Shown: positions 49,849 through 58,887 of the stretch, one piece after another
Position numbering within the stretch: position 1 is the stretch's first letter
Layout of the letters: the number at the start of each line of letters is the position of its first letter
Notes under the pieces: model-generated
What the model saw: only the letters and a program-made list of their open reading frames with translations
Databases searched by the model: none
What the model was told of the DNA's origin: nothing
DNA from: Escherichia phage ECO71P1
Sequence record: OP172789
Reading direction: 5' to 3' (one strand)
DNA: 64,000 bases
Translations under genes and position numbers: made by a program

Positions 49849-50487
49849 TTAACGAGTCAATTGTACAATGGTATAAGTGGAAGACTGGACGCTTGGGCCG
49901 GAAAGGGCAATAGTCGTCGGGTCAATCACAATACCGCCTGGGATGGCAACCATGCCAGTTGGCAATGAGCCAGTATAGGCGATAATTGCACCAATAGGCA
50001 AGTTGTTCGGGTTGTTACCGCTGGAAATGCCTTTAGGTACATAAGCAAGCAGGTCGCCATAGTTAAGCGTCTGCGGACTGGTGCTTGGGTTGAATACTTC
50101 AACTACGAGGCCCGTGCACATATCATAGAACTCGCCTTCGCTATATTGAGGCAGAACCATGCTGGCACCCAAAGGACCAGTAGAGTTGCCATACAGCGCG
50201 TAACGCTTGCTATTGCCGAGGATGCCGTAGTAGTTAGTGCCGCCCAGCTCAACTTCAAAGTCCTGCGCGCCCAAAGTTTTGGTTTGACCAGTACCCATTA
50301 AGGATACGTCAGTCTTAAAACCGAACACACGGCTGATGGCGTTTACGTTTGCGCCTTCGTTAGCGTTGGCAATTCGGCCTGGCTTCCCACGCTGTGGGCC
50401 GTCGCGAACGATGTCGCCAGGAAAGCCAGTTGTATATTGACGGCCTACACTAGTTTGGAAAGTCATGTTTATTCCCCTTTCAACCAA
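49849..50487 (-). CDS. head decoration/auxiliary capsid protein candidate
   Basis: Between scaffold-protease and major capsid genes. Confidence 0.4.
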   Translation of the reverse strand: MVERGINMTFQTSVGRQYTTGFPGDIVRDGPQRGKPGRIANANEGANVNAISRVFGFKTDVSLMGTGQTKTLGAQDFEVELGGTNYYGILGNSKRYALYGNSTGPLGASMVLPQYSEGEFYDMCTGLVVEVFNPSTSPQTLNYGDLLAYVPKGISSGNNPNNLPIGAIIAYTGSLPTGMVAIPGGIVIDPTTIALSGPSVQSSTYTIVQLTR

Positions 50488-51887
50488 GCTTCAAATGCTT
50501 CGTCAGTTGCTGCAGAATCCGCAGCGGCCTTTTGTTTTGCGACTACACGCTGTTTTTGACCGTGTTCAACGCCGCGCAGATAATTATCCACCACGTCAAA
50601 CTCAGCACCATCAACGCACTTCAAGCCTAACTTTTTAGCGCCATATTTCGCTACGGACTTGGAGTCCATAGTTGCATGATCAAAGGCACCAACAACTTTA
50701 GACAGGCGCTGGTAGAGGCTATTCTTACGAGCAGAATCAGCGTAGAAAGCAGCAACTGCTGAATCAGATGCCATTGAGTGTTCCCCTTTTGCTGGACCTG
50801 GCGACGCTTTCGCCGCTTTTGTCGGTTTGTCATCTTTTTCGACCGAAGCCCCCTTTACGTTGCTGTTTTGCAGGCCGCTAACCACATCTTCAGCTTTGTC
50901 GCAAGGTGATACATCTTCAGCCTTGACTTCAACTTCTTCGTCTTTGACTTCGGCTTCAACTTCTTCTTCATCACCTACCGCGCCACCTTTAAGTTTTGCA
51001 ATAAGTGCTTCGATTTGGCTGATCAGTTGCGGAAGCTCGCCGCCAGCGTGAGATTCAGTTTCAACTTCAAACTTCTCTTCACCTTCTGGAGTCTCTTCAG
51101 CTTCTGCTTTAACTTCTGGATCAACCATCACTTCTTCACGTTCTTCGGTTGAATCCTTCTCTTCTGCTTTCACTTCAACTTCGTCCTGATGAGCAGCTTC
51201 GGTGCTCTCTTCATTCAGAAATTGTTCGAGCGCAGGGATCAGTGATTTCAGCTGTTCAACAGCATTATCACGCGCTTTACCTTTTAACGGTTTTGGCATG
51301 TCTAAATCCTCGTTGGATGGTGTTACAGTCGTCAAACAAAGATGGTCAAAGCAACGACCATCCAGCACCCGTGCACCTGGTACTCGACCAACGTCCACGA
51401 GAGCAATGTGGTTGCCGCGAAGAGTTGTCTGTACCACTTCATACGGCTGCCCGTCAAACTCTCCAGACTGTATGATGAATTCACAGTCATAGCCCAAAGA
51501 CAAGTCAACCTTTCCAGAATCGATGGCCTTCTTCAGACGACGGCTAAAAACTTTAAGGTCGCCGCGCATCCATGGCTTGTCATAATAAACATTGCCAGTT
51601 AGAACGCCATCAACGCCATACTCTTCGGGTGCTGTGTTATCCTCATCACCTTCGAATCCAGAAAGCATTTCGTGATTGTCGATGAAAGGGATATTTTTGA
51701 ATGAATCTATCGCTTCGGGGTCTTTCACCGCTGACTCTGGGCGATAAACTTTTACGATGCGATTCGGATCACCATCAAGTCCAACCTGACCTGCAGAATA
51801 ATCAAAAATGCCAAATGACGAAATGGGACAACCCACAATCGTCAAGAATCCATTTTTGTCAATTTCGCGTGCCGTTTGCATTCGCAT
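50469..51887 (-). CDS. prohead protease-scaffold fusion protein candidate
   Basis: N-terminal ~200-aa globular domain followed by a long Glu/Lys-rich repetitive helical region (EVEVKAEEK ...) typical of scaffolds; immediately upstream of capsid genes. Confidence 0.55.
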   Translation of the reverse strand: MRMQTAREIDKNGFLTIVGCPISSFGIFDYSAGQVGLDGDPNRIVKVYRPESAVKDPEAIDSFKNIPFIDNHEMLSGFEGDEDNTAPEEYGVDGVLTGNVYYDKPWMRGDLKVFSRRLKKAIDSGKVDLSLGYDCEFIIQSGEFDGQPYEVVQTTLRGNHIALVDVGRVPGARVLDGRCFDHLCLTTVTPSNEDLDMPKPLKGKARDNAVEQLKSLIPALEQFLNEESTEAAHQDEVEVKAEEKDSTEEREEVMVDPEVKAEAEETPEGEEKFEVETESHAGGELPQLISQIEALIAKLKGGAVGDEEEVEAEVKDEEVEVKAEDVSPCDKAEDVVSGLQNSNVKGASVEKDDKPTKAAKASPGPAKGEHSMASDSAVAAFYADSARKNSLYQRLSKVVGAFDHATMDSKSVAKYGAKKLGLKCVDGAEFDVVDNYLRGVEHGQKQRVVAKQKAAADSAATDEAFEAWLKGE

Positions 51888-52451: not shown

Positions 52452-53372
52452 TTAGTTCAACTTAATTGCGGTGATCTGTCCGTAAACGGTAGATGTCAAT
52501 TCGTCTGTGCATTGATAGTTTAGATACACGTTGCCAGGCGCGGCAAGAGTAATTATCTTTGTTGGAATATTGCCGCCGAAACGACCTGCAGCCCGAATGC
52601 CAGCAGACATCGTGAATGCATCATCCGTAATATCTGAATTACTTGTTGACAATTTTACTGTAATTCCGGTATTCGCTTGAACTCCTTCTGTTGCGACAGT
52701 CAACTGACTTGCTGTCACAAGCCATTTCCCTGCAGGCAGGTTTAATGTTGCCAGATTCACCAGAGTTGTCGGAGGATTGCTTACACTATTGCTTGTGTTT
52801 TGCACATTGCTTGCAGCAGCATTAAGAACTCCAGAACCATCAATTGATAGTGTCGCTCCTACTTTTACGCCACCCAAGGTTGATGCTGATGCAATCGGTA
52901 ACGAGTATTGAGTAACACTAATTGTACCGTCACCTGCAACACTTATGCCACTTCCTATCTTGACGCCGCCGAGAACAGAAGCCGTTGCCGCTGGTAACGT
53001 GTATTGGTTGCCGCTGGATTTGACTACCTTAACGGCGACAGCATTCTTGGACCCTCCAGACTCCATGCCTATAATCACCGCTTCTCCAAAAGCGATGGTG
53101 ATTGTAGATGCAGTTAAACCAGTCTGCACGTCTGTTATGTCCATTTTGGGAACTGAAAGTGTCAGATTCGGCTTGCTGGTAGAATCGCCATCATTACCGA
53201 TCATAAAGAATTGGCCGACTGAATTGTATCCAGATGCCAATGGCGGACTCAATGGAACAATCAAATTTTTATCGGATGTAAATTCTGAAACAATCGCCAA
53301 ACCGTTCGCATATACAGCAGGTAATACTGGCGTTTGTCCAGATATAGGAAACGTGCTGATTGGTATCGTCAT
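52452..53372 (-). CDS. fibre-like protein with tail-fibre-type repeats, located inside the head module
   Basis: Repeats ATASVLGGVKIGSGISVAGDGTISV and STLGGVKVGATLSIDGSGVLN; start adjusted to ATG with GAGGT RBS. Confidence 0.55.
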   Translation of the reverse strand: MTIPISTFPISGQTPVLPAVYANGLAIVSEFTSDKNLIVPLSPPLASGYNSVGQFFMIGNDGDSTSKPNLTLSVPKMDITDVQTGLTASTITIAFGEAVIIGMESGGSKNAVAVKVVKSSGNQYTLPAATASVLGGVKIGSGISVAGDGTISVTQYSLPIASASTLGGVKVGATLSIDGSGVLNAAASNVQNTSNSVSNPPTTLVNLATLNLPAGKWLVTASQLTVATEGVQANTGITVKLSTSNSDITDDAFTMSAGIRAAGRFGGNIPTKIITLAAPGNVYLNYQCTDELTSTVYGQITAIKLN

Positions 53373-53379
53373 AATGACC

Positions 53380-54231
53380 TCAAATGATTGGTATTTTCCT
53401 GCACTTGCAGTGTATTGCCCATCCAGGAGGACCGATGTCACCCTTTTTGAACTTCAATTCTCCGCCAACTTCCCATAGGCGCTTGTCATCAAGTTTAAAT
53501 CTCATTCCGTCGACGTGTTCATGAGAGATTCGCGGCTCCTTTCCTGCTCCTGAGTGCGCCCATTCAAATTCTTCAACTCCATTCTGGCGCATCCTTTCAT
53601 CGCTTAGAACGCAATACAATTTGCTTGTCTGGTCTTTAGCGATTAAGTCGACTCTCTTTGCAGAGAAGTGTTTTACGTTTCGCAGCGCCGCCTGAATGCC
53701 TGACGTGCCTTGCTGGGCTGGGTCGGGCGAAGTCAGCGAAAGCATTACTGCTTCGTACACTCTGTTGTGAATATCCTCGCCGACCTTAGTCACTAGAGTC
53801 GTGTTAAACGTCTCGCTTGTTCTAAGAGTGTTCTCAACGAATTTGTTATATGTGGCCTTTGGCGCTTCTATGCCTGCGGACTTAAGGCTGGCGAATGTAG
53901 CAGAAGTAGCACCCTTTTCGACCGATTTGATAAAATCAGCGGCAATCTTTGACCCAACACGAGCAAACGCCCTTGCCCATTTCAGCTGCAGACGTTTCAT
54001 AAGAGTTTGGAATGTTGAATCAGCAGAGTCTTGCGCAAAGAACTTCTGCACCTGCTTCTTTTCAAGCCACTCTGAAATTCCTGCCTGATAGTCATCAATC
54101 ATCGCATAGCAAAGACCTTTCATCTCACGACGGTAGGCCATTGCAATAGCGTTTGATGGGATTATCGGACTGCCGCGCCCGATTCTATCGGGTGAGCGGC
54201 GTTCACGTTTTTTCGAAGCTTTAAAAGCCAT
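53380..54231 (-). CDS. head morphogenesis protein, Mu F / SPP1 gp7-like
   Basis: C-terminal HEHVDGMRF ... GPPGWAIHCKCR motif; directly after portal gene. Confidence 0.65.
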   Translation of the reverse strand: MAFKASKKRERRSPDRIGRGSPIIPSNAIAMAYRREMKGLCYAMIDDYQAGISEWLEKKQVQKFFAQDSADSTFQTLMKRLQLKWARAFARVGSKIAADFIKSVEKGATSATFASLKSAGIEAPKATYNKFVENTLRTSETFNTTLVTKVGEDIHNRVYEAVMLSLTSPDPAQQGTSGIQAALRNVKHFSAKRVDLIAKDQTSKLYCVLSDERMRQNGVEEFEWAHSGAGKEPRISHEHVDGMRFKLDDKRLWEVGGELKFKKGDIGPPGWAIHCKCRKIPII

Positions 54232-54232
54232 A

Positions 54233-56608
54233 TCAACCTTGCTTCGGTGAATTAGTAGGATTATTGAGTGCTCCGTATGCTTGAGAGCAATCACCCTTCA
54301 ACCACTCCTTGAATGAGTTCACATCTAATTCGTGGATTGAGTCGAATCCATTCCAACCGTTACCAAATGATGCTTGATAAGCTTCTTTCGCTTCTTCTGC
54401 TGAATCGAATCCAAGCATACACTTGTGTTCATCAAACTCGCCAGAGTAGTTATCGTTTTGGTTCACGATAAAGACTTTCGGCGACTTCAGATTTGGACCC
54501 ACAAAGCAGTCTACTTCATCACCGTCTGCACCCTTGGTGCCCTTGATGAATCCGTAGTGGTGCGGCATCTTCACGGCCCATTCACCGTCAAGGCTGTTTC
54601 CTCTACGAATGCTGTTGCGCGGATTCTCAATGCCAAGAATCATTCCGTGCAACTTCATCTTAGGTAATGATGCTGCGTCCATTTTACCAACGTTGTGGCG
54701 TAAGTTGACGACGTGTCCTTTAACGCTTGGAAGGGTAGACGGTTGCACCGACCGTGAATCTTTTTGAGGGTCAAAATCCACATCCTGACCTTCTTTCAGG
54801 TAGTAATCCGCAATACCCTCCAGACCTTCTTTCAACTGCGTTAGGACATCAACCTGATGGCTTGATTCATCATCGGTGTCGTCCATGTTGATTTCGACAG
54901 GTGCTCTGTCAGGGTTTTCTGCCAACTCACCACGCGCGGCACCCTCTGGCATAATACCTGTTTCGCTATAGAACTGGCCGCCCATCTTGACAACATCAGC
55001 TTTCGCCTGTTCAATATCGGCCTTACCTTGCAGGACTTCACCAGCAGACTTGCCAAGCAATGCCATATTCTCTGGAGACATCCCTGGGGTTTCTTCTGCT
55101 GCGTCTTCCGGCAGACGGTTGTAGCCGCTGTTTTTGTCGTCTTTGATGCGGTCGCGCTCTTCATCAGGAGAAATGACGCCAGCATCAATAAGAGTTTTGC
55201 CAGTGTTGGCTCGCTTATCATTGATTTCTGCAAGTTGAGTAGCAGTAAGTGAGCCAACTGGTTCCCATGCAACCTTAACATCGACATCCACCCCTTCTGA
55301 TTTGAGAAGGATTTTGTAATGGCGGTCGAGAATTTTTGTCAGGTCATGCTGCTGGCACGTTTCCAACTCTTCGTGATAGCTGACCATCTCGAATTCACCA
55401 GTAGCGTTAAAGCCTTTCGGCGAAGTCCCAAGTAGTTTGGTTGACGGAACTTTTGCGATTGCGGCCACCAGCTGGTACTGGTTCATGATGATGCTGTCGA
55501 AGTCTGACAAGTTGATGTCGAACTGGTCCATCTCTTCTTTTTGGCCAAGCACTTTGACTGCATAGTTATCGCGGTACTTGATCCACATCATCAGACGTTC
55601 TGCAAAAGACCGCTCATTGGCAATCGCCTTGTCAACGTCGGTCCGCAGCGTGGTTGTACGCTTGGACATCGCCAGCAATGGCGCTTCGTTAGCGGTACGT
55701 TCAGCGGCATAGATGCGTTCATAAATCTGCTGAGTCAGAGGAATGCCGCCGTAAATATAAGTTGGCTTGAGAATATCAGCTGGCTCATCATTGCGCAAGA
55801 TGATGAGGTGACTGCGATGATAACGTTGTCCGCTGATCACCCAGTATTCTGGATCATAGAAGTGCTGTGATGCAGGGTCGGCGGTGTTTTCAGACGTTAA
55901 AAATGGCATCATCCAATAAGGGTCAACCTGAATGATTCCCTTATAAGACCCCTTTGTCACACCATCAATGTTAAAAGGCTTGCTGTAATATTCTGGATCA
56001 TCGCTACGCACATCAAATATGATGACGCGGATACCAAAAATATTTTTGAATCGTTCGGCTTCAACTAAGTGCTCTTTGATATTAAATTCTTTATCAATTT
56101 GCTTTAGGCGTTCGCTTGCCTGCACTGACAATTCTGACTCAGAACTGGATTTGACTTCCCAACCTTTACGGACCGCATCGCGTCCTACCATGGAACACGC
56201 CTTGTTCACCAGCCAATGCTGTGCGATGATGGCACAAGCTTGATAGCCGATGAATGACTGTGACAAATACCAGTTTTGAAGTTGAATAGGTACTGTGTAT
56301 GGGTTGACCTGCCCTTCTGAACTGATGTTCTTCAAGGCATTATCCATGACTTTTTTGGATACTGTTGCGGAATCGACTGAACGGCCTTTTATGATAGCAA
56401 CACCGTCGCCATTAATATCAGGCTCATATAAAGGGAAGTCATCAACCGTTTTAAAGGTCGGTCGATTGCTTTCAGTCTTTTCCCAGCGTTGACCGCTGCC
56501 GCGCCTTTCAAGGCGTTCAAACGGTGCCAATGGGTCGCCTGGCGGCATCTCCGCTGGTTCGGCTTCTGGTTGCGTCTTCTCCCAGAGTTTTATGCCAAGA
56601 ATTTTCAT
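54233..56608 (-). CDS. portal protein with C-terminal ~140-aa extension matching the family I inorganic pyrophosphatase signature
   Basis: Large gene between terminase and Mu F-like gene; C-terminal YGFIKGTKGADGDEVDCFV and AEEAKEAYQASF segments. Confidence 0.6.
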   Translation of the reverse strand: MKILGIKLWEKTQPEAEPAEMPPGDPLAPFERLERRGSGQRWEKTESNRPTFKTVDDFPLYEPDINGDGVAIIKGRSVDSATVSKKVMDNALKNISSEGQVNPYTVPIQLQNWYLSQSFIGYQACAIIAQHWLVNKACSMVGRDAVRKGWEVKSSSESELSVQASERLKQIDKEFNIKEHLVEAERFKNIFGIRVIIFDVRSDDPEYYSKPFNIDGVTKGSYKGIIQVDPYWMMPFLTSENTADPASQHFYDPEYWVISGQRYHRSHLIILRNDEPADILKPTYIYGGIPLTQQIYERIYAAERTANEAPLLAMSKRTTTLRTDVDKAIANERSFAERLMMWIKYRDNYAVKVLGQKEEMDQFDINLSDFDSIIMNQYQLVAAIAKVPSTKLLGTSPKGFNATGEFEMVSYHEELETCQQHDLTKILDRHYKILLKSEGVDVDVKVAWEPVGSLTATQLAEINDKRANTGKTLIDAGVISPDEERDRIKDDKNSGYNRLPEDAAEETPGMSPENMALLGKSAGEVLQGKADIEQAKADVVKMGGQFYSETGIMPEGAARGELAENPDRAPVEINMDDTDDESSHQVDVLTQLKEGLEGIADYYLKEGQDVDFDPQKDSRSVQPSTLPSVKGHVVNLRHNVGKMDAASLPKMKLHGMILGIENPRNSIRRGNSLDGEWAVKMPHHYGFIKGTKGADGDEVDCFVGPNLKSPKVFIVNQNDNYSGEFDEHKCMLGFDSAEEAKEAYQASFGNGWNGFDSIHELDVNSFKEWLKGDCSQAYGALNNPTNSPKQG

Positions 56609-56770
56609 TGTTAACGCCACCTGACAGTGAAAGGGAATCAATCTATATTATAAATATTCATGTGTTTGTAAGCAAATGATATGTATGGTGATCATAAATA
56701 GTTCATAAAATATTTTGCTTTTGTATCATTTTGAGTTATATTTTAGTTAACCAAACGAAAGGAGATTGAA

Positions 56771-57187
56771 ATGAGCACAACAATTGTATTTGTCGTCCTG
56801 CACAACGGCGAAGTCGTTAACGTATGTGAATGTGAAGAACTGGCAAAGGCCACTGCCGCGCGATACGAAGGTGCTACTATTGACCCGTGGATTTTAGATG
56901 CGCGAAACGTCTTGCAGGCGACTTTGGATGAGTGGCTGTTGGGTCGCAAAGTCTATCCAGTAGACAATATCGACTCCATTCAAGGTGAAACAGTATACTT
57001 TGAAGATGAATGCGTTCGCGGAATCGGCAAATTCATGGGATTGTGCCCATCTTCATCCAAAAACAAATTTTATCGTATTCAAGTTGAAGAAAACGATATG
57101 TTTGACAAAGTCACGCGCTCGATTGTTCCTGGCGGCGGCACTCCAATTTTTATGGCAGAATCAGACATCAAGGGGATTATCAAATGA
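56771..57187 (+). CDS. hypothetical protein (138 aa), plus-strand gene between portal and terminase
   Basis: Strong RBS AAAGGAG; opposite strand to flanking morphogenesis genes. Confidence 0.55.
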   Translation: MSTTIVFVVLHNGEVVNVCECEELAKATAARYEGATIDPWILDARNVLQATLDEWLLGRKVYPVDNIDSIQGETVYFEDECVRGIGKFMGLCPSSSKNKFYRIQVEENDMFDKVTRSIVPGGGTPIFMAESDIKGIIK

Positions 57188-57423
57188 GAACTTTAACCGA
57201 ACTCGATGTTCTGAAAGATGTTGCAGCCGCGCTGGGCGTTGAAGTCTCCGAAAAGTCGACACTGGGCGCGCTGCGTCGCGATTTACTCGAAGCCGTCGAC
57301 CGCAACGATTTTGACCGTAAGTGTTTGCAAAAGAAGATTCGACAGGCAGTAAGGGCGGGTAAGCGATTCCGTGCCAGGTCGTTTGCCGCGAGAAAACTCG
57401 ACCTTCAGCACGGAATGCTTTAA
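57184..57423 (+). CDS. hypothetical basic protein (79 aa)
   Basis: ATGA overlap with the preceding gene. Confidence 0.5.
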   Translation: MRTLTELDVLKDVAAALGVEVSEKSTLGALRRDLLEAVDRNDFDRKCLQKKIRQAVRAGKRFRARSFAARKLDLQHGML

Positions 57424-57426
57424 TTG

Positions 57427-58887
57427 TTAAAGGTTAGAGAAGAAGCCGGATGCTGCAACAATTGGTTTCATCAATGCCATGATTGCTGCGTCCGCTTTGT
57501 TAGGCGATTTGACTCCACGCTTTGCCATATCCTTTTTCGATTCAACTTTGAACTTGCCAAGTACAGACGTGTCTTTGCGCGGCGCTGACATTTCAAAAAG
57601 AAACGTCTCAATTTCTTCCGCAGACCAAGCAGGAATCCCAAGTTCTGGGATGCCGTCTGTGTCGATGGAAATCAACTCATCAGTCGGGTATACGGCCTGC
57701 CCTGTTGCATACTCATATGTCTTCCTGAATCGTTCGGCAATCTCAGTCCATTTTTGCGCTTTTATGTTTGCGAAATGGTCTTTATTGAGTATTTCAACGT
57801 GTGGTAACTCAAGGAAAACGTCATCAGGATCATCAACAGCACCTTGCGCGTTGAACGCATTAAATTCGATTCTTGGGAATGTTGGATTTTCATGGATTGC
57901 ATACTCATTGAGCTCATCAAATTTTGAACCAGCAAATGCACCAACACCGATTGCGTCATAGGTAATTGATGCGCCGAATGTCAATGCGTCTTTCCAAACT
58001 CCGCTTGCGGACTTAAGCAATTCATCTTCCAGACCTTCCCATGTCTTGATGCCGCGCAATACGTTGCCCGTGACAAATGCTGTGGCGTTTAAGTCGTCGC
58101 CGTCGTCCGCCACGTCAAAGCCTATACGGTTAGACCCTGACAAGCTCCATCCCAGCGTAGGGTGTTTGTGGAGGTTTAGCGCGGCCTTGACGAATGCACG
58201 GTTAATGACCGACTTGTCGCCGCCTGTCTTCGGTACTCCGCCATAAACGTGCTCTGCCTTTTTCGGGTCGCGCTCATACATGCCAGCAATAACGTCCAGC
58301 ATTGTTTGCGACAAGAATGGGTTGTCTTGCCAGTTGATCTTCTTAACGATGGCATTCTTCGGCGGTCGCATGACAAAGTTCTGGTAAACGAAATCGGCCT
58401 CTTCATCAGGGTTAAATATGATCCATATTTCGGACCCTTCCTTACGAATTGTCGGCTCAATAATGTCCCACTGCTCTTCAGTCAGTGCGTGCGCTTCCTC
58501 AAGCCAAAGAACATCAACGCCTTCGGTTGATTTGATTTCGTCAACGTTGCGTGCGATACCGTAAAATAAGAATTCAGATTTTGTTCTTTTATGCTCAATG
58601 GAGTTTTTTAATAAGTTGAACTCGTCTTTAAAATCAGAAATCTCTATCTTATCTTTTAATAGCGTATATACTGATTCAGAAATCTTGTTCTGGAATTGTC
58701 GAACGCAAAGGAATTTTAATTTAAAGTTTGCCGCCAAATAAATAGCAAAACCAGCGGCATCATGCGATTTGGAAGATGCACGACCGCCGTATATAACTTT
58801 GTATCGCGCTTTCGTCTTCCAGACTTCTCTTAAAGCAGGATTCAACTGGTACATGACTTTCCAATTATGTGTTAATATTTTATTCAT
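57427..58887 (-). CDS. terminase large subunit
   Basis: Walker A YGGRASSKS near the N-terminus; 486 aa; C-terminal nuclease-like acidic residues. Confidence 0.8.
   Translation of the reverse strand: MNKILTHNWKVMYQLNPALREVWKTKARYKVIYGGRASSKSHDAAGFAIYLAANFKLKFLCVRQFQNKISESVYTLLKDKIEISDFKDEFNLLKNSIEHKRTKSEFLFYGIARNVDEIKSTEGVDVLWLEEAHALTEEQWDIIEPTIRKEGSEIWIIFNPDEEADFVYQNFVMRPPKNAIVKKINWQDNPFLSQTMLDVIAGMYERDPKKAEHVYGGVPKTGGDKSVINRAFVKAALNLHKHPTLGWSLSGSNRIGFDVADDGDDLNATAFVTGNVLRGIKTWEGLEDELLKSASGVWKDALTFGASITYDAIGVGAFAGSKFDELNEYAIHENPTFPRIEFNAFNAQGAVDDPDDVFLELPHVEILNKDHFANIKAQKWTEIAERFRKTYEYATGQAVYPTDELISIDTDGIPELGIPAWSAEEIETFLFEMSAPRKDTSVLGKFKVESKKDMAKRGVKSPNKADAAIMALMKPIVAASGFFSNL

Follow-up and report, generated by a model that had tools for sequence, protein, structure and literature searches.

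The portal protein of Escherichia phage ECO71P1 was found to end in a small domain of the family I pyrophosphatase (PPase) type, and assignment of this domain to the InPase clade was confirmed by its match to Pfam PF18823 (E = 3.3e-46) and by structural comparison. Fusion of a portal to a PPase-like domain, which a first-pass annotation of this DNA had regarded as unfamiliar, is genuine here, though it had been described before; Iyer, Burroughs, Anand, de Souza and Aravind (2017, J Bacteriol; PMC5512222) defined the InPase clade in phage polyvalent proteins and had already noted its fusion to a portal, the example being BcepF1.124 (YP_001039808.1). The most likely reading, and one we hold to be fairly probable, is of an active, metal-dependent pyrophosphohydrolase that an acidic linker would keep attached to the portal within the capsid.

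The portal gene and its neighbours

The window, by which is meant the whole 64,000-nt stretch of ECO71P1 DNA that was analysed, represents most of the genome of a Wifcevirus (family Lindbergviridae). Its terminase, portal, MuF-like and protease genes constitute one head and packaging module, in which the terminase gene lies upstream of the portal gene and the other two downstream:

57427..58887, minus strand: terminase large subunit (PF04466, E = 3.2e-37)
54233..56608, minus strand: portal-InPase gene (791 aa plus stop, from ATG)
53380..54231, minus strand: MuF-like head morphogenesis gene (ATG at 54231, 2 nt past the portal stop)
50469..51887, minus strand: head maturation protease (phrog_3778, E = 8.5e-173)

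The portal ORF as delimited mechanically (54233..56641, minus strand) opens with the first TTG, at 56641, and encodes 802 aa. All annotated relatives begin at the ATG equivalent to position 56608 of the window, yielding a product of 791 aa, and this ATG is the probable start of the gene. Residue numbers for the ECO71P1 protein are those of the 802-aa ORF unless fragment numbering is indicated. An uninterrupted coding sequence of 2376 nt, identical in length, was present in all ten Wifcevirus genomes compared. Separate expression of the InPase domain from an internal translation start or promoter was considered and dropped, as nothing in the sequence supported it: no convincing Shine-Dalgarno sequence precedes M654, M662 or M667, and promoter and terminator matches that might serve such expression occurred at chance level only. 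Scans of the whole window for tRNA genes and Rfam families returned no matches.

Architecture of the portal protein

Judged from sequence comparisons, the portal protein is composed of two conserved modules on either side of a divergent linker of approximately 110 aa, with the following segments:

55205..56245, minus strand: portal core, Pfam PF06381 Phage_portal_3 (aa 133-479)
55007..55204, minus strand: post-core segment (aa 480-545)
54677..55006, minus strand: acidic, poorly conserved linker (aa 546-655)
54296..54664, minus strand: InPase domain, Pfam PF18823 (aa 660-782)

Identities to distant portal-InPase fusions were 58-67% in the core, 32-52% in the post-core segment, 20-23% in the linker and 44-63% in the InPase domain. 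The core was recognized by PF06381 (E = 3.4e-88) and also by phrog_146, and a Pfam scan of the portal ORF detected no domains besides Phage_portal_3 and InPase; PHROG 4660 spans aa 27-788 as a single family and so describes the whole fusion. The protein is orthologous to the structurally verified portals of phages Pa193 (9b41_L, E = 6.5e-251) and E217 (8fvh_O, E = 9.5e-190), and can be aligned over its full length with the 765-aa chain of Pa193 (aa 14-779). The post-core segment is the counterpart of the C-terminal helical barrel region of these two portals, in whose models (PDB 8FVH and 9B41) residue 528 is the last to be modelled. The linker has a net charge of -11 and a pI of 4.5. A full-length AF2 model, built with seven sequences, had a mean pLDDT of 43.8 and was uninformative as to linker flexibility and domain packing.

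The C-terminal domain belongs to the InPase clade

The PF18823 match scored 156.9 bits, where the cut-off is 26.8, and covered model positions 12-135 of 135; all homologues that were found carry PF18823 as well. The confident AlphaFold core of the domain comprises aa ~661-793, and when the domain was searched against the PDB with Foldseek, the best 50 matches were all family I PPases, whilst NCBIfam and PADLOC scans provided no informative match for it. The proposal of a family I PPase-like domain at the portal C-terminus, originally placed at 54233-54700, an interval that contains the Pfam match, was therefore borne out. The following motifs were recognized within the domain:

54605..54631, minus strand: IENPRNSIR motif (E672 and R679 nearly invariant)
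54500..54556, minus strand: YGFIKGTKGADGDEVDCFV block (aa 696-714)
54422..54436, minus strand: FDEHK motif (D737, E738 and K740 nearly invariant)
54365..54400, minus strand: AEEAKEAYQASF helix (aa 748-759)

The heptad DGDEVDC (aa 706-712; 54506-54526, minus strand) does fit, as had been suggested, the pattern D-[SGDN]-D-[PE]-[LIVMF]-D-[LIVMGAC], which we take to be the PROSITE signature of family I PPases. This pattern has a single match in the six-frame translation of the window, where 0.007 would be expected from composition.

The family is widespread, with 11,260 representatives at E<=1e-3 (clusters at 50% identity) and 470 phage records carrying the domain. Most of its occurrences are in multidomain or giant proteins, alongside partners of effector type, including GGDEF, RadC/JAB, ART-PolyVal, LPD1 and an SNF2-like helicase, and its contexts outside portals number in the hundreds. 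A GGDEF cyclase, which generates PPi, directly adjoins the InPase domain in P0035. Some portal-InPase fusions carry an additional ADP-ribosyltransferase toxin domain or a topoisomerase IB after the InPase domain. Public annotations label the portal-InPase proteins as 'minor head protein', 'portal' or 'hypothetical'.

Comparison with classical pyrophosphatases and residue conservation

The domain was aligned to classical PPases with phmmer against the PDB and with hhalign, using profiles of 17 and 167 sequences; the E. coli PPase sequence employed, including AEAAKAEIVASF, is identical to that of PDB 1faj/1ino. At ~135 aa (the Pfam model has 135 positions) against 175 aa for the E. coli enzyme, the domain is indeed shorter by about 40 aa, as first estimated, and shares 12-21% identity with classical PPases in structural alignments. 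The match to PF00719 attained 18.0-20.8 bits, below the cut-off of 23.5, over 25 residues only, and the NCBIfam PPase equivalog NF002578 scored 17.4 against a threshold of 246. These unreached thresholds and the few aligned columns count against the reading of the domain as an active pyrophosphohydrolase. Only 23-28 columns aligned confidently, hence the mapping of residues beyond the core block is something that we infer; the template PPase profile was moreover shallow, in that no homologue among the 120 listed fell below 82% identity to the E. coli enzyme.

The one block that aligned confidently is YGFIKGTKGADGDEVDCFV, in which Y696 corresponds to Y55 of E. coli PPase and D706, D708 and D711 to D65, D67 and D70. 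Near-invariance and strand order make it plausible that equivalents of E20, K29 (as Arg), D102 and K104 are also kept; E672 and R679 would be those of E20 and K29, according to a low-confidence part of the alignment, whilst the order of strands in the predicted structure suggests that the FDEHK residues provide those of D102 and K104. The positions of E31 (Gly here), R43 and Y51 appeared to be unconserved or deleted, in a region of low alignment confidence, and position D97 is occupied by Asp in 89 and by Asn in 44 of 167 domains. Y141 and K142 could be placed only tentatively, in a low-confidence part of the alignment, and the equivalent of K142 may not be kept.

The first reading of AEEAKEAYQASF as the C-terminal helix of E. 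coli PPase, AEAAKAEIVASF, is probably a mis-assignment. In the predicted structure AEEAKEAYQASF opens the set of C-terminal helices, with a strand and then another helix after it, and is thus probably the counterpart of PPase helix A rather than of the C-terminal helix B; the profile alignment, in its low-confidence part, likewise places AEEAKEAYQASF opposite helix A and VNSFKEWLK opposite helix B. Members of the InPase clade are expected to be without a beta-hairpin insert that is found in all structurally characterised classical PPases. The AF2 model of the ECO71P1 domain has a hairpin (fragment residues 51-64) between the IEN and YGF strands, despite being ~40 aa shorter, and the gaps in the hhalign alignments to classical PPases were scattered and in low-confidence parts.

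Residue conservation was assessed over 167 diverse InPase domains, in a fragment numbering to which 627 is added to obtain that of the 802-aa ORF. Fragment residues E45, R52, Y69, D79, D84, D110, E111 and K113 were near-invariant; E45 (E672) and R52 (R679) were each retained in 163 of the 167 domains, and D81 (D708) was Asp in 153 and Glu in 10. The acidic residues D706, D708, D711 and D737, together with E738 and E672, are all present in ECO71P1 and were 92-100% conserved over the same set, consistent with the four conserved acidic residues described for the clade (PMC5512222). All of the catalytic-type residues were invariant among the ten Wifcevirus orthologues. The dN/dS ratio within these orthologues was 0.021 for the InPase domain (at a dS of 0.32), a value comparable to the 0.007 of the portal core, and by this sequence measure the InPase domain is under strong purifying selection.

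Function of the portal-tethered domain

In the favoured reading, the domain would act as a Mg2+-dependent pyrophosphohydrolase, whose substrate could be PPi or a pyrophosphate of the nucleotide type, given that R43, E31 and probably K142 are apparently not kept. Since the barrel of the portal projects into the head, twelve copies would hang within the capsid on flexible tethers; such flexibility would account for the missing density of the orthologous residues 529-765 in the cryo-EM maps of E217 and Pa193. In line with the proposal of Iyer et al. that it is injected (PMC5512222), the domain may travel in the virion and act as soon as infection begins, when it could either remove PPi, thereby favouring transcription and replication in the early phase, or degrade a nucleotide signal of the host. 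Proteolytic release might precede delivery. Two considerations weigh against this scheme: a domain covalently bound to the portal could leave the capsid only upon cleavage, of which no sign was seen, and packaging driven by the terminase yields no PPi, so that a role inside the capsid is not obvious. If any processing does occur, the head maturation protease encoded at 50469..51887 is the candidate for processing the portal termini. The literature searched contained no enzymatic assay for any InPase-clade protein, and the 2017 paper (PMC5512222) was the only one that this search brought up on InPase or a portal-pyrophosphatase.

A more specific version, which we regard as unlikely, is that the twelve domains are not helpers that clear PPi but a specialised counter-defence enzyme, which would be released by the head protease and hydrolyse a host immune or alarm nucleotide that contains a pyrophosphate as the DNA enters. 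The altered residues, namely the lost equivalents of R43, E31 and Y51 and the newly invariant W, H, H and Q, would account for a new specificity. If this were true, the portal itself would serve to deliver an anti-defence enzyme throughout the Lindbergviridae, therapeutic Pbunavirus phages included.

The conserved catalytic-type residues are also compatible with an active enzyme that is not injected, and which works late, either on unassembled or procapsid-bound portals or in cis at the portal vertex; removal of PPi could, for example, drive a very fast nucleic-acid synthesis in Wifcevirus, with encapsidation a by-product. The tether is covalent and no internal start or separate gene was seen in the sequence, the GGDEF cyclase beside InPase in P0035 would suit a PPi-clearing helper, and Wifcevirus replication cycles of 3-5 min are given in a report as cited by the BASEL paper. 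However, host PPase is already abundant and efficient, a structural protein that is produced late, in low quantity and at 12 copies per virion would be an odd source of bulk PPase activity, and the other contexts of InPase are polyvalent proteins packaged into virions, such that we consider a non-injected enzyme improbable.

A non-catalytic pseudo-enzyme, serving as a structural metal- or phosphate-binding module in the head, would agree with the apparent absence of R43, E31 and Y51 (albeit in a low-confidence part of the alignment), with the failure to reach classical PPase HMM thresholds, with the PPase core being an OB fold (PMC5512222), and with the proximity of the domain to the portal barrel, which touches DNA in E217. 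Its partners might be packaged DNA or scaffold and internal proteins, in roles such as headful sensing or DNA-end retention. In pseudo-enzymes the metal ligands and the general base are usually lost, yet here these are almost invariant over 167 diverse domains; both domain and linker are acidic, which is unfavourable for DNA binding, and a portal-specific structural role is inapplicable to the hundreds of non-portal contexts. We therefore judge a pseudo-enzyme to be quite improbable, and of the two options first put forward for this domain, a virion-associated enzyme and a degenerate structural fold, the latter is the less likely. That the extension is an artefact of frameshift or mis-assembly, the caveat originally attached to it, or a chance motif match, is ruled out for practical purposes by ten independent genomes with intact coding sequences of identical length in which synonymous change dominates throughout, by the orthologous 765-aa chain deposited for Pa193, and by a Pfam E-value of 3e-46 beside the heptad expectation of 0.007.

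The discovery at the sequence level had already been made, the family being in Pfam and its portal fusion published in 2017 for the same phage family. The substrate of this very widespread domain and the fate of its portal-tethered copy are modestly important biochemical questions. The orthologues include those of the therapeutic Pseudomonas phages E217 and Pa193, in which the last ~240 residues were left unmodelled and unremarked in cryo-EM studies. Because public labels and the cryo-EM papers pass over the domain, naming it in portals is a useful annotation gain and a cheap experimental lead, though not a new kind of system.

Comparison with known systems

BcepF1.124 has the same PF18823 family in the same order, portal then InPase, with the acidic residues conserved alike; BcepF1 (Bcepfunavirus) and ECO71P1 (Wifcevirus) both belong to the Lindbergviridae, and apart from genus and host, which is E. 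coli here, the two fusions do not differ substantially. Portal-InPase fusions were treated alongside polyvalent proteins by Iyer et al. (PMC5512222). Unlike many members of that group, which possess 2-15 effector domains and often a processing protease, the ECO71P1 portal combines one structural module with a single enzymatic one; it is a minimal form, which has a domain and the logic of packaging in common with polyvalent proteins yet falls outside their definition.

The gp19 proteins of Pa193 (PDB 9B41) and E217 (PDB 8FVH), genus Pbunavirus, are full-length orthologues that have PHROG 4660 in common with the ECO71P1 portal; their InPase domains are ~58-59% identical to that of ECO71P1, and the linker is poorly conserved. 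In the respective cryo-EM papers residues ~94-528 were modelled, no density was observed for residues 529-765, and the pyrophosphatase-like domain is unmentioned; on mass spectrometry, the Pa193 paper states only that portal residues 1-93 were undetected by LC-MS, and the E217 paper has no such data.

E. coli Ppa, the classical PF00719 enzyme, is a free hexameric housekeeping protein, whereas InPase is here tethered as part of a structural protein. T4 Alt is a packaged enzyme. Effector domains on head structural proteins have been described as MuF-PBECR and portal-2H (PMC5512222), and these MuF- and portal-fused effectors share with the ECO71P1 fusion an enzymatic domain that is encapsidated by virtue of its attachment to a head-internal structural protein. 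The predicted chemistry of the ECO71P1 domain is pyrophosphohydrolase-like, unlike that of MuF-PBECR, portal-2H and T4 Alt.

Gene neighbourhood and coordinates

The portal-InPase gene was found to share 91-98% nucleotide identity with its orthologue in 28 Escherichia/Shigella Wifcevirus phages, including WFH, ECML-117, FEC19, Mansfield and ManiWeber, hence the window represents most of a ~68-kb Wifcevirus genome. The gene order was that of a terminase large subunit (TerL), two small opposite-strand genes, the portal-InPase gene, a MuF-like gene, a 329-aa ORF and a head maturation protease.

Features of the portal-InPase region (window coordinates)
57427-58887, minus: TerL
57184-57423, plus: small gene between TerL and portal
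56771-57187, plus: small gene between TerL and portal
54233..56641, minus: portal-InPase ORF, 802 aa counted from the first TTG, with the region under study at its 3' end
54500-54556, within that ORF: YGFIKGTKGADGDEVDCFV, aa 696-714
54506-54526, within that ORF: DGDEVDC heptad, aa 706-712
54365-54400, within that ORF: AEEAKEAYQASF, aa 748-759
ends at 53380, minus: MuF-like head morphogenesis protein gene
52452-53441, minus: 329-aa ORF with fibre-like repeats, between the MuF-like and protease genes
50469-51887, minus: head maturation protease, three genes downstream of portal-InPase

One of the two small genes matched phrog_5124 (unknown function) and no match was found for the other; relatives have the same pair annotated. 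The 329-aa ORF carries two tandem copies of the motif Y[TS]LP.A[TS]AS.LGGVK[IV]G, together with weak PHROG matches to head-fibre and tail-fibre families, and may encode a head fibre or decoration protein. Neither tRNA genes nor Rfam families at gathering threshold were detected in the whole window (1-64000).

In every annotated relative the portal-InPase gene starts at the ATG matching window position 56608, giving a 791-aa protein, and the Mansfield annotation places a ribosome-binding site ahead of this ATG. The TTG of the mechanically called 802-aa ORF lies 33 nt upstream (56608-56641, minus strand). Residue numbers here follow the 802-aa numbering of the first-pass annotation. The MuF-like gene begins 2 nt past the portal stop in annotated relatives, and no sign of an internal start yielding a free InPase domain was seen in the portal-InPase gene. 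The PPase-type heptad pattern (D-[SGDN]-D-[PE]-[LIVMF]-D-[LIVMGAC], as given in the first-pass annotation) matched once in a six-frame translation of the 64-kb window, against 0.007 matches expected from composition. The observation originally made at 54233-54700 was confirmed.

Integrity of the fusion and selection

The 2376-nt CDS was unbroken and of the same length in all 10 genomes compared (the window and nine relatives), and alignment of the protein with 9b41_L, the 765-aa chain of the Pa193 portal, ran over the full length (E=6.5e-251), as did that with the E217 portal. These results rule out the possibility, raised in the first-pass annotation, that a frameshift or mis-assembly had joined a separate gene to the portal.

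Pooled pairwise Nei-Gojobori dN/dS values, calculated by region, were 0.015 for the N-terminus, 0.007 for the portal core, 0.020 for the post-core (barrel) segment, 0.028 for the linker and 0.021 for InPase (dS = 0.32). Seven positions of aa 656-802 varied among the 10 genomes, none of them at a catalytic-type residue. One of nine Wifcevirus orthologues carries G707D within the heptad, and the resulting DDDEVDC still fits the PPase-type pattern. Relative to distant metagenomic portal-InPase fusions, identity was 58-67% in the core and 44-63% in InPase, but only 20-23% in the linker between them, which is acidic (net charge -11, pI 4.5). A conserved core and InPase around a divergent acidic linker is, at the sequence level, the pattern expected of two functional modules on a tether.

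Identity of the C-terminal domain

Pfam searches recovered two domains, Phage_portal_3 (PF06381; aa 133-479, E=3.4e-88) and InPase, 'Inorganic Pyrophosphatase' (PF18823; aa 660-782, E=3.3e-46, 156.9 bits vs a cut-off of 26.8). The classical PF00719 scored 18-20.8 bits, under its 23.5-bit threshold, with just 25 residues matched, and the C-terminal domain fell far under the threshold of the NCBIfam PPase equivalog. PHROG 4660 ('minor head protein') spans aa 27-788 as a single family, so that the portal-InPase fusion already stands as a phage protein family in its own right.

When the last 175 aa were modelled with AlphaFold2, the core was confident (pLDDT >90 over about 100 residues), and the best 50 Foldseek matches of the model in the PDB were all family I pyrophosphatases (E from 2e-4, probability ~1.0, TM 0.35-0.45). 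Confident sequence or profile alignment with E. coli PPase, using a sequence identical to PDB 1faj/1ino, was limited to 23-28 columns around YG..DGDxVD. As judged from profiles and predicted structure, the domain genuinely belongs to the family I PPase superfamily, albeit as a divergent member, and it falls clearly within the InPase clade; the pyrophosphatase homology initially proposed was right.

Active-site residues

Conservation was assessed in an alignment of 167 InPase domains, comprising the 150 best 50%-identity representatives and the first matches, with residues numbered within the last 175 aa (add 627 for the ORF number). Near-invariant residues were E45, R52, G54, W61, Y69, G70, D79, D84, G88, Q101, D110, E111, H112, K113, G117, A124 and Y128, as well as D81 (D in 153 domains, E in 10). 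Y69, D79, D81 and D84 are confidently equivalent to E. coli Y55, D65, D67 and D70, whilst strand order in the AlphaFold2 model and low-confidence hhalign alignment suggest E20 and K29 as the counterparts of E45 and R52, and D102 and K104 as those of D110/E111 and K113. At low-confidence mapped positions, classical E31 is replaced by an invariant Gly, R43 is variable and Y51 is deleted; the D97 position holds D in 89/167 domains and N in 44/167, and equivalents of Y141/K142 had no confident placement in the alignment. Our interpretation is that the machinery for binding metal and activating the nucleophile has probably been kept and that the phosphate-binding shell differs in part, which favours a putative active pyrophosphohydrolase whose substrate may differ from plain PPi.

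Probable location in the virion and proposed mechanism

Cryo-EM models of orthologous portals cover residues 97-528 in E217 (PMC10329688) and 94-528 in Pa193 (PMC11456595). Residues 529-765 have no density in either portal (PDB 8FVH and 9B41, respectively), and a pyrophosphatase-like domain within them is unmentioned in both papers (PMC10329688, PMC11456595). Residues 1-93 of the Pa193 portal were undetected by LC-MS (PMC11456595), which hints at N-terminal processing. Because the E217 portal barrel points into the head, being ordered only with DNA present (PMC10329688), the tethered InPase domains should lie inside the capsid. Proteolytic release of the putative cargo is possible, given the head maturation protease encoded three genes downstream. 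The literature searched contained no enzymatic assay or genetic test of the InPase domain, and no proteomic evidence on whether the portal C-terminus is kept or cleaved.

We propose that a metal-dependent, putatively active pyrophosphohydrolase would enter the capsid on the flexible portal tether and act at DNA entry or just after. That an active InPase-clade enzyme is encapsidated via the portal appears quite probable to us; our confidence in any particular substrate, or in ejection, is considerably lower.

Family spread and comparison with known systems

At E<=1e-3, 11,260 InPase representatives were retrieved from a library of 1.84 billion proteins. Portal fusions accounted for 6 of 163 proteins examined, and 53 of the 163 exceeded 1500 aa. 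One giant protein (P0035, 3902 aa) combined GGDEF, InPase, RadC/JAB and ART-PolyVal domains, with the diguanylate-cyclase-type GGDEF directly N-terminal to InPase and the other two after it; a second combined InPase, LPD1 and an SNF2-like helicase. The GGDEF diguanylate-cyclase reaction yields PPi, and this pairing is suggestive of a PPi-clearing role. Two metagenomic portal-InPase fusions carried a third C-terminal enzyme, an ADP-ribosyltransferase exotoxin domain in P0022 (1191 aa) and a type IB topoisomerase in P0025 (1106 aa), and portals seem to offer their C-terminus as a general site for attaching cargo enzymes. A ferritin/Dps-like domain (PF00210) accompanied InPase in P0016 (306 aa), and two InPase domains per protein were also seen (P0018, P0060, P0081).

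Sequenced phages provided 470 records with InPase (294 Pseudomonas, 70 Vibrio, 26 Escherichia and others). Among the matches listed, the Pseudomonas phages were ~66-kb PB1-like/Pbunavirus, and annotations were mostly minor head, portal or hypothetical protein, never pyrophosphatase.

The InPase domain of phage 'polyvalent proteins' was defined by Iyer, Burroughs, Anand, de Souza and Aravind (2017), who described a shortened type I pyrophosphatase branch that is monophyletic and conserves four acidic residues. They located it chiefly in (pro)phage proteins that are probably virion-packaged, noted its fusion to portals with BcepF1 as the example, and proposed that it hydrolyses nucleotide-like signals or removes inhibitory PPi, aiding early replication/transcription (PMC5512222). 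Our searches agree with this picture. Although the first-pass annotation knew of no portal-pyrophosphatase fusion, the feature is already known, as a curated Pfam family and a portal fusion published for Lindbergviridae, which in NCBI taxonomy takes in Wifcevirus, Pbunavirus and Bcepfunavirus; BcepF1 belongs to the same virus family as Wifcevirus. The value left lies in better annotation of Wifcevirus and Pbunavirus portals and in a lead on substrate, processing and delivery. In one respect the modelled domain may depart from the published description, depending on how the strands are counted or where the missing ~40 aa fall: there the clade is without a hairpin between core strands 1 and 2 (PMC5512222), whereas the AlphaFold2 model has a beta-hairpin at residues 51-64 of the 175-aa fragment, between the IEN and YGF strands, bearing the invariant R52, G54 and W61.
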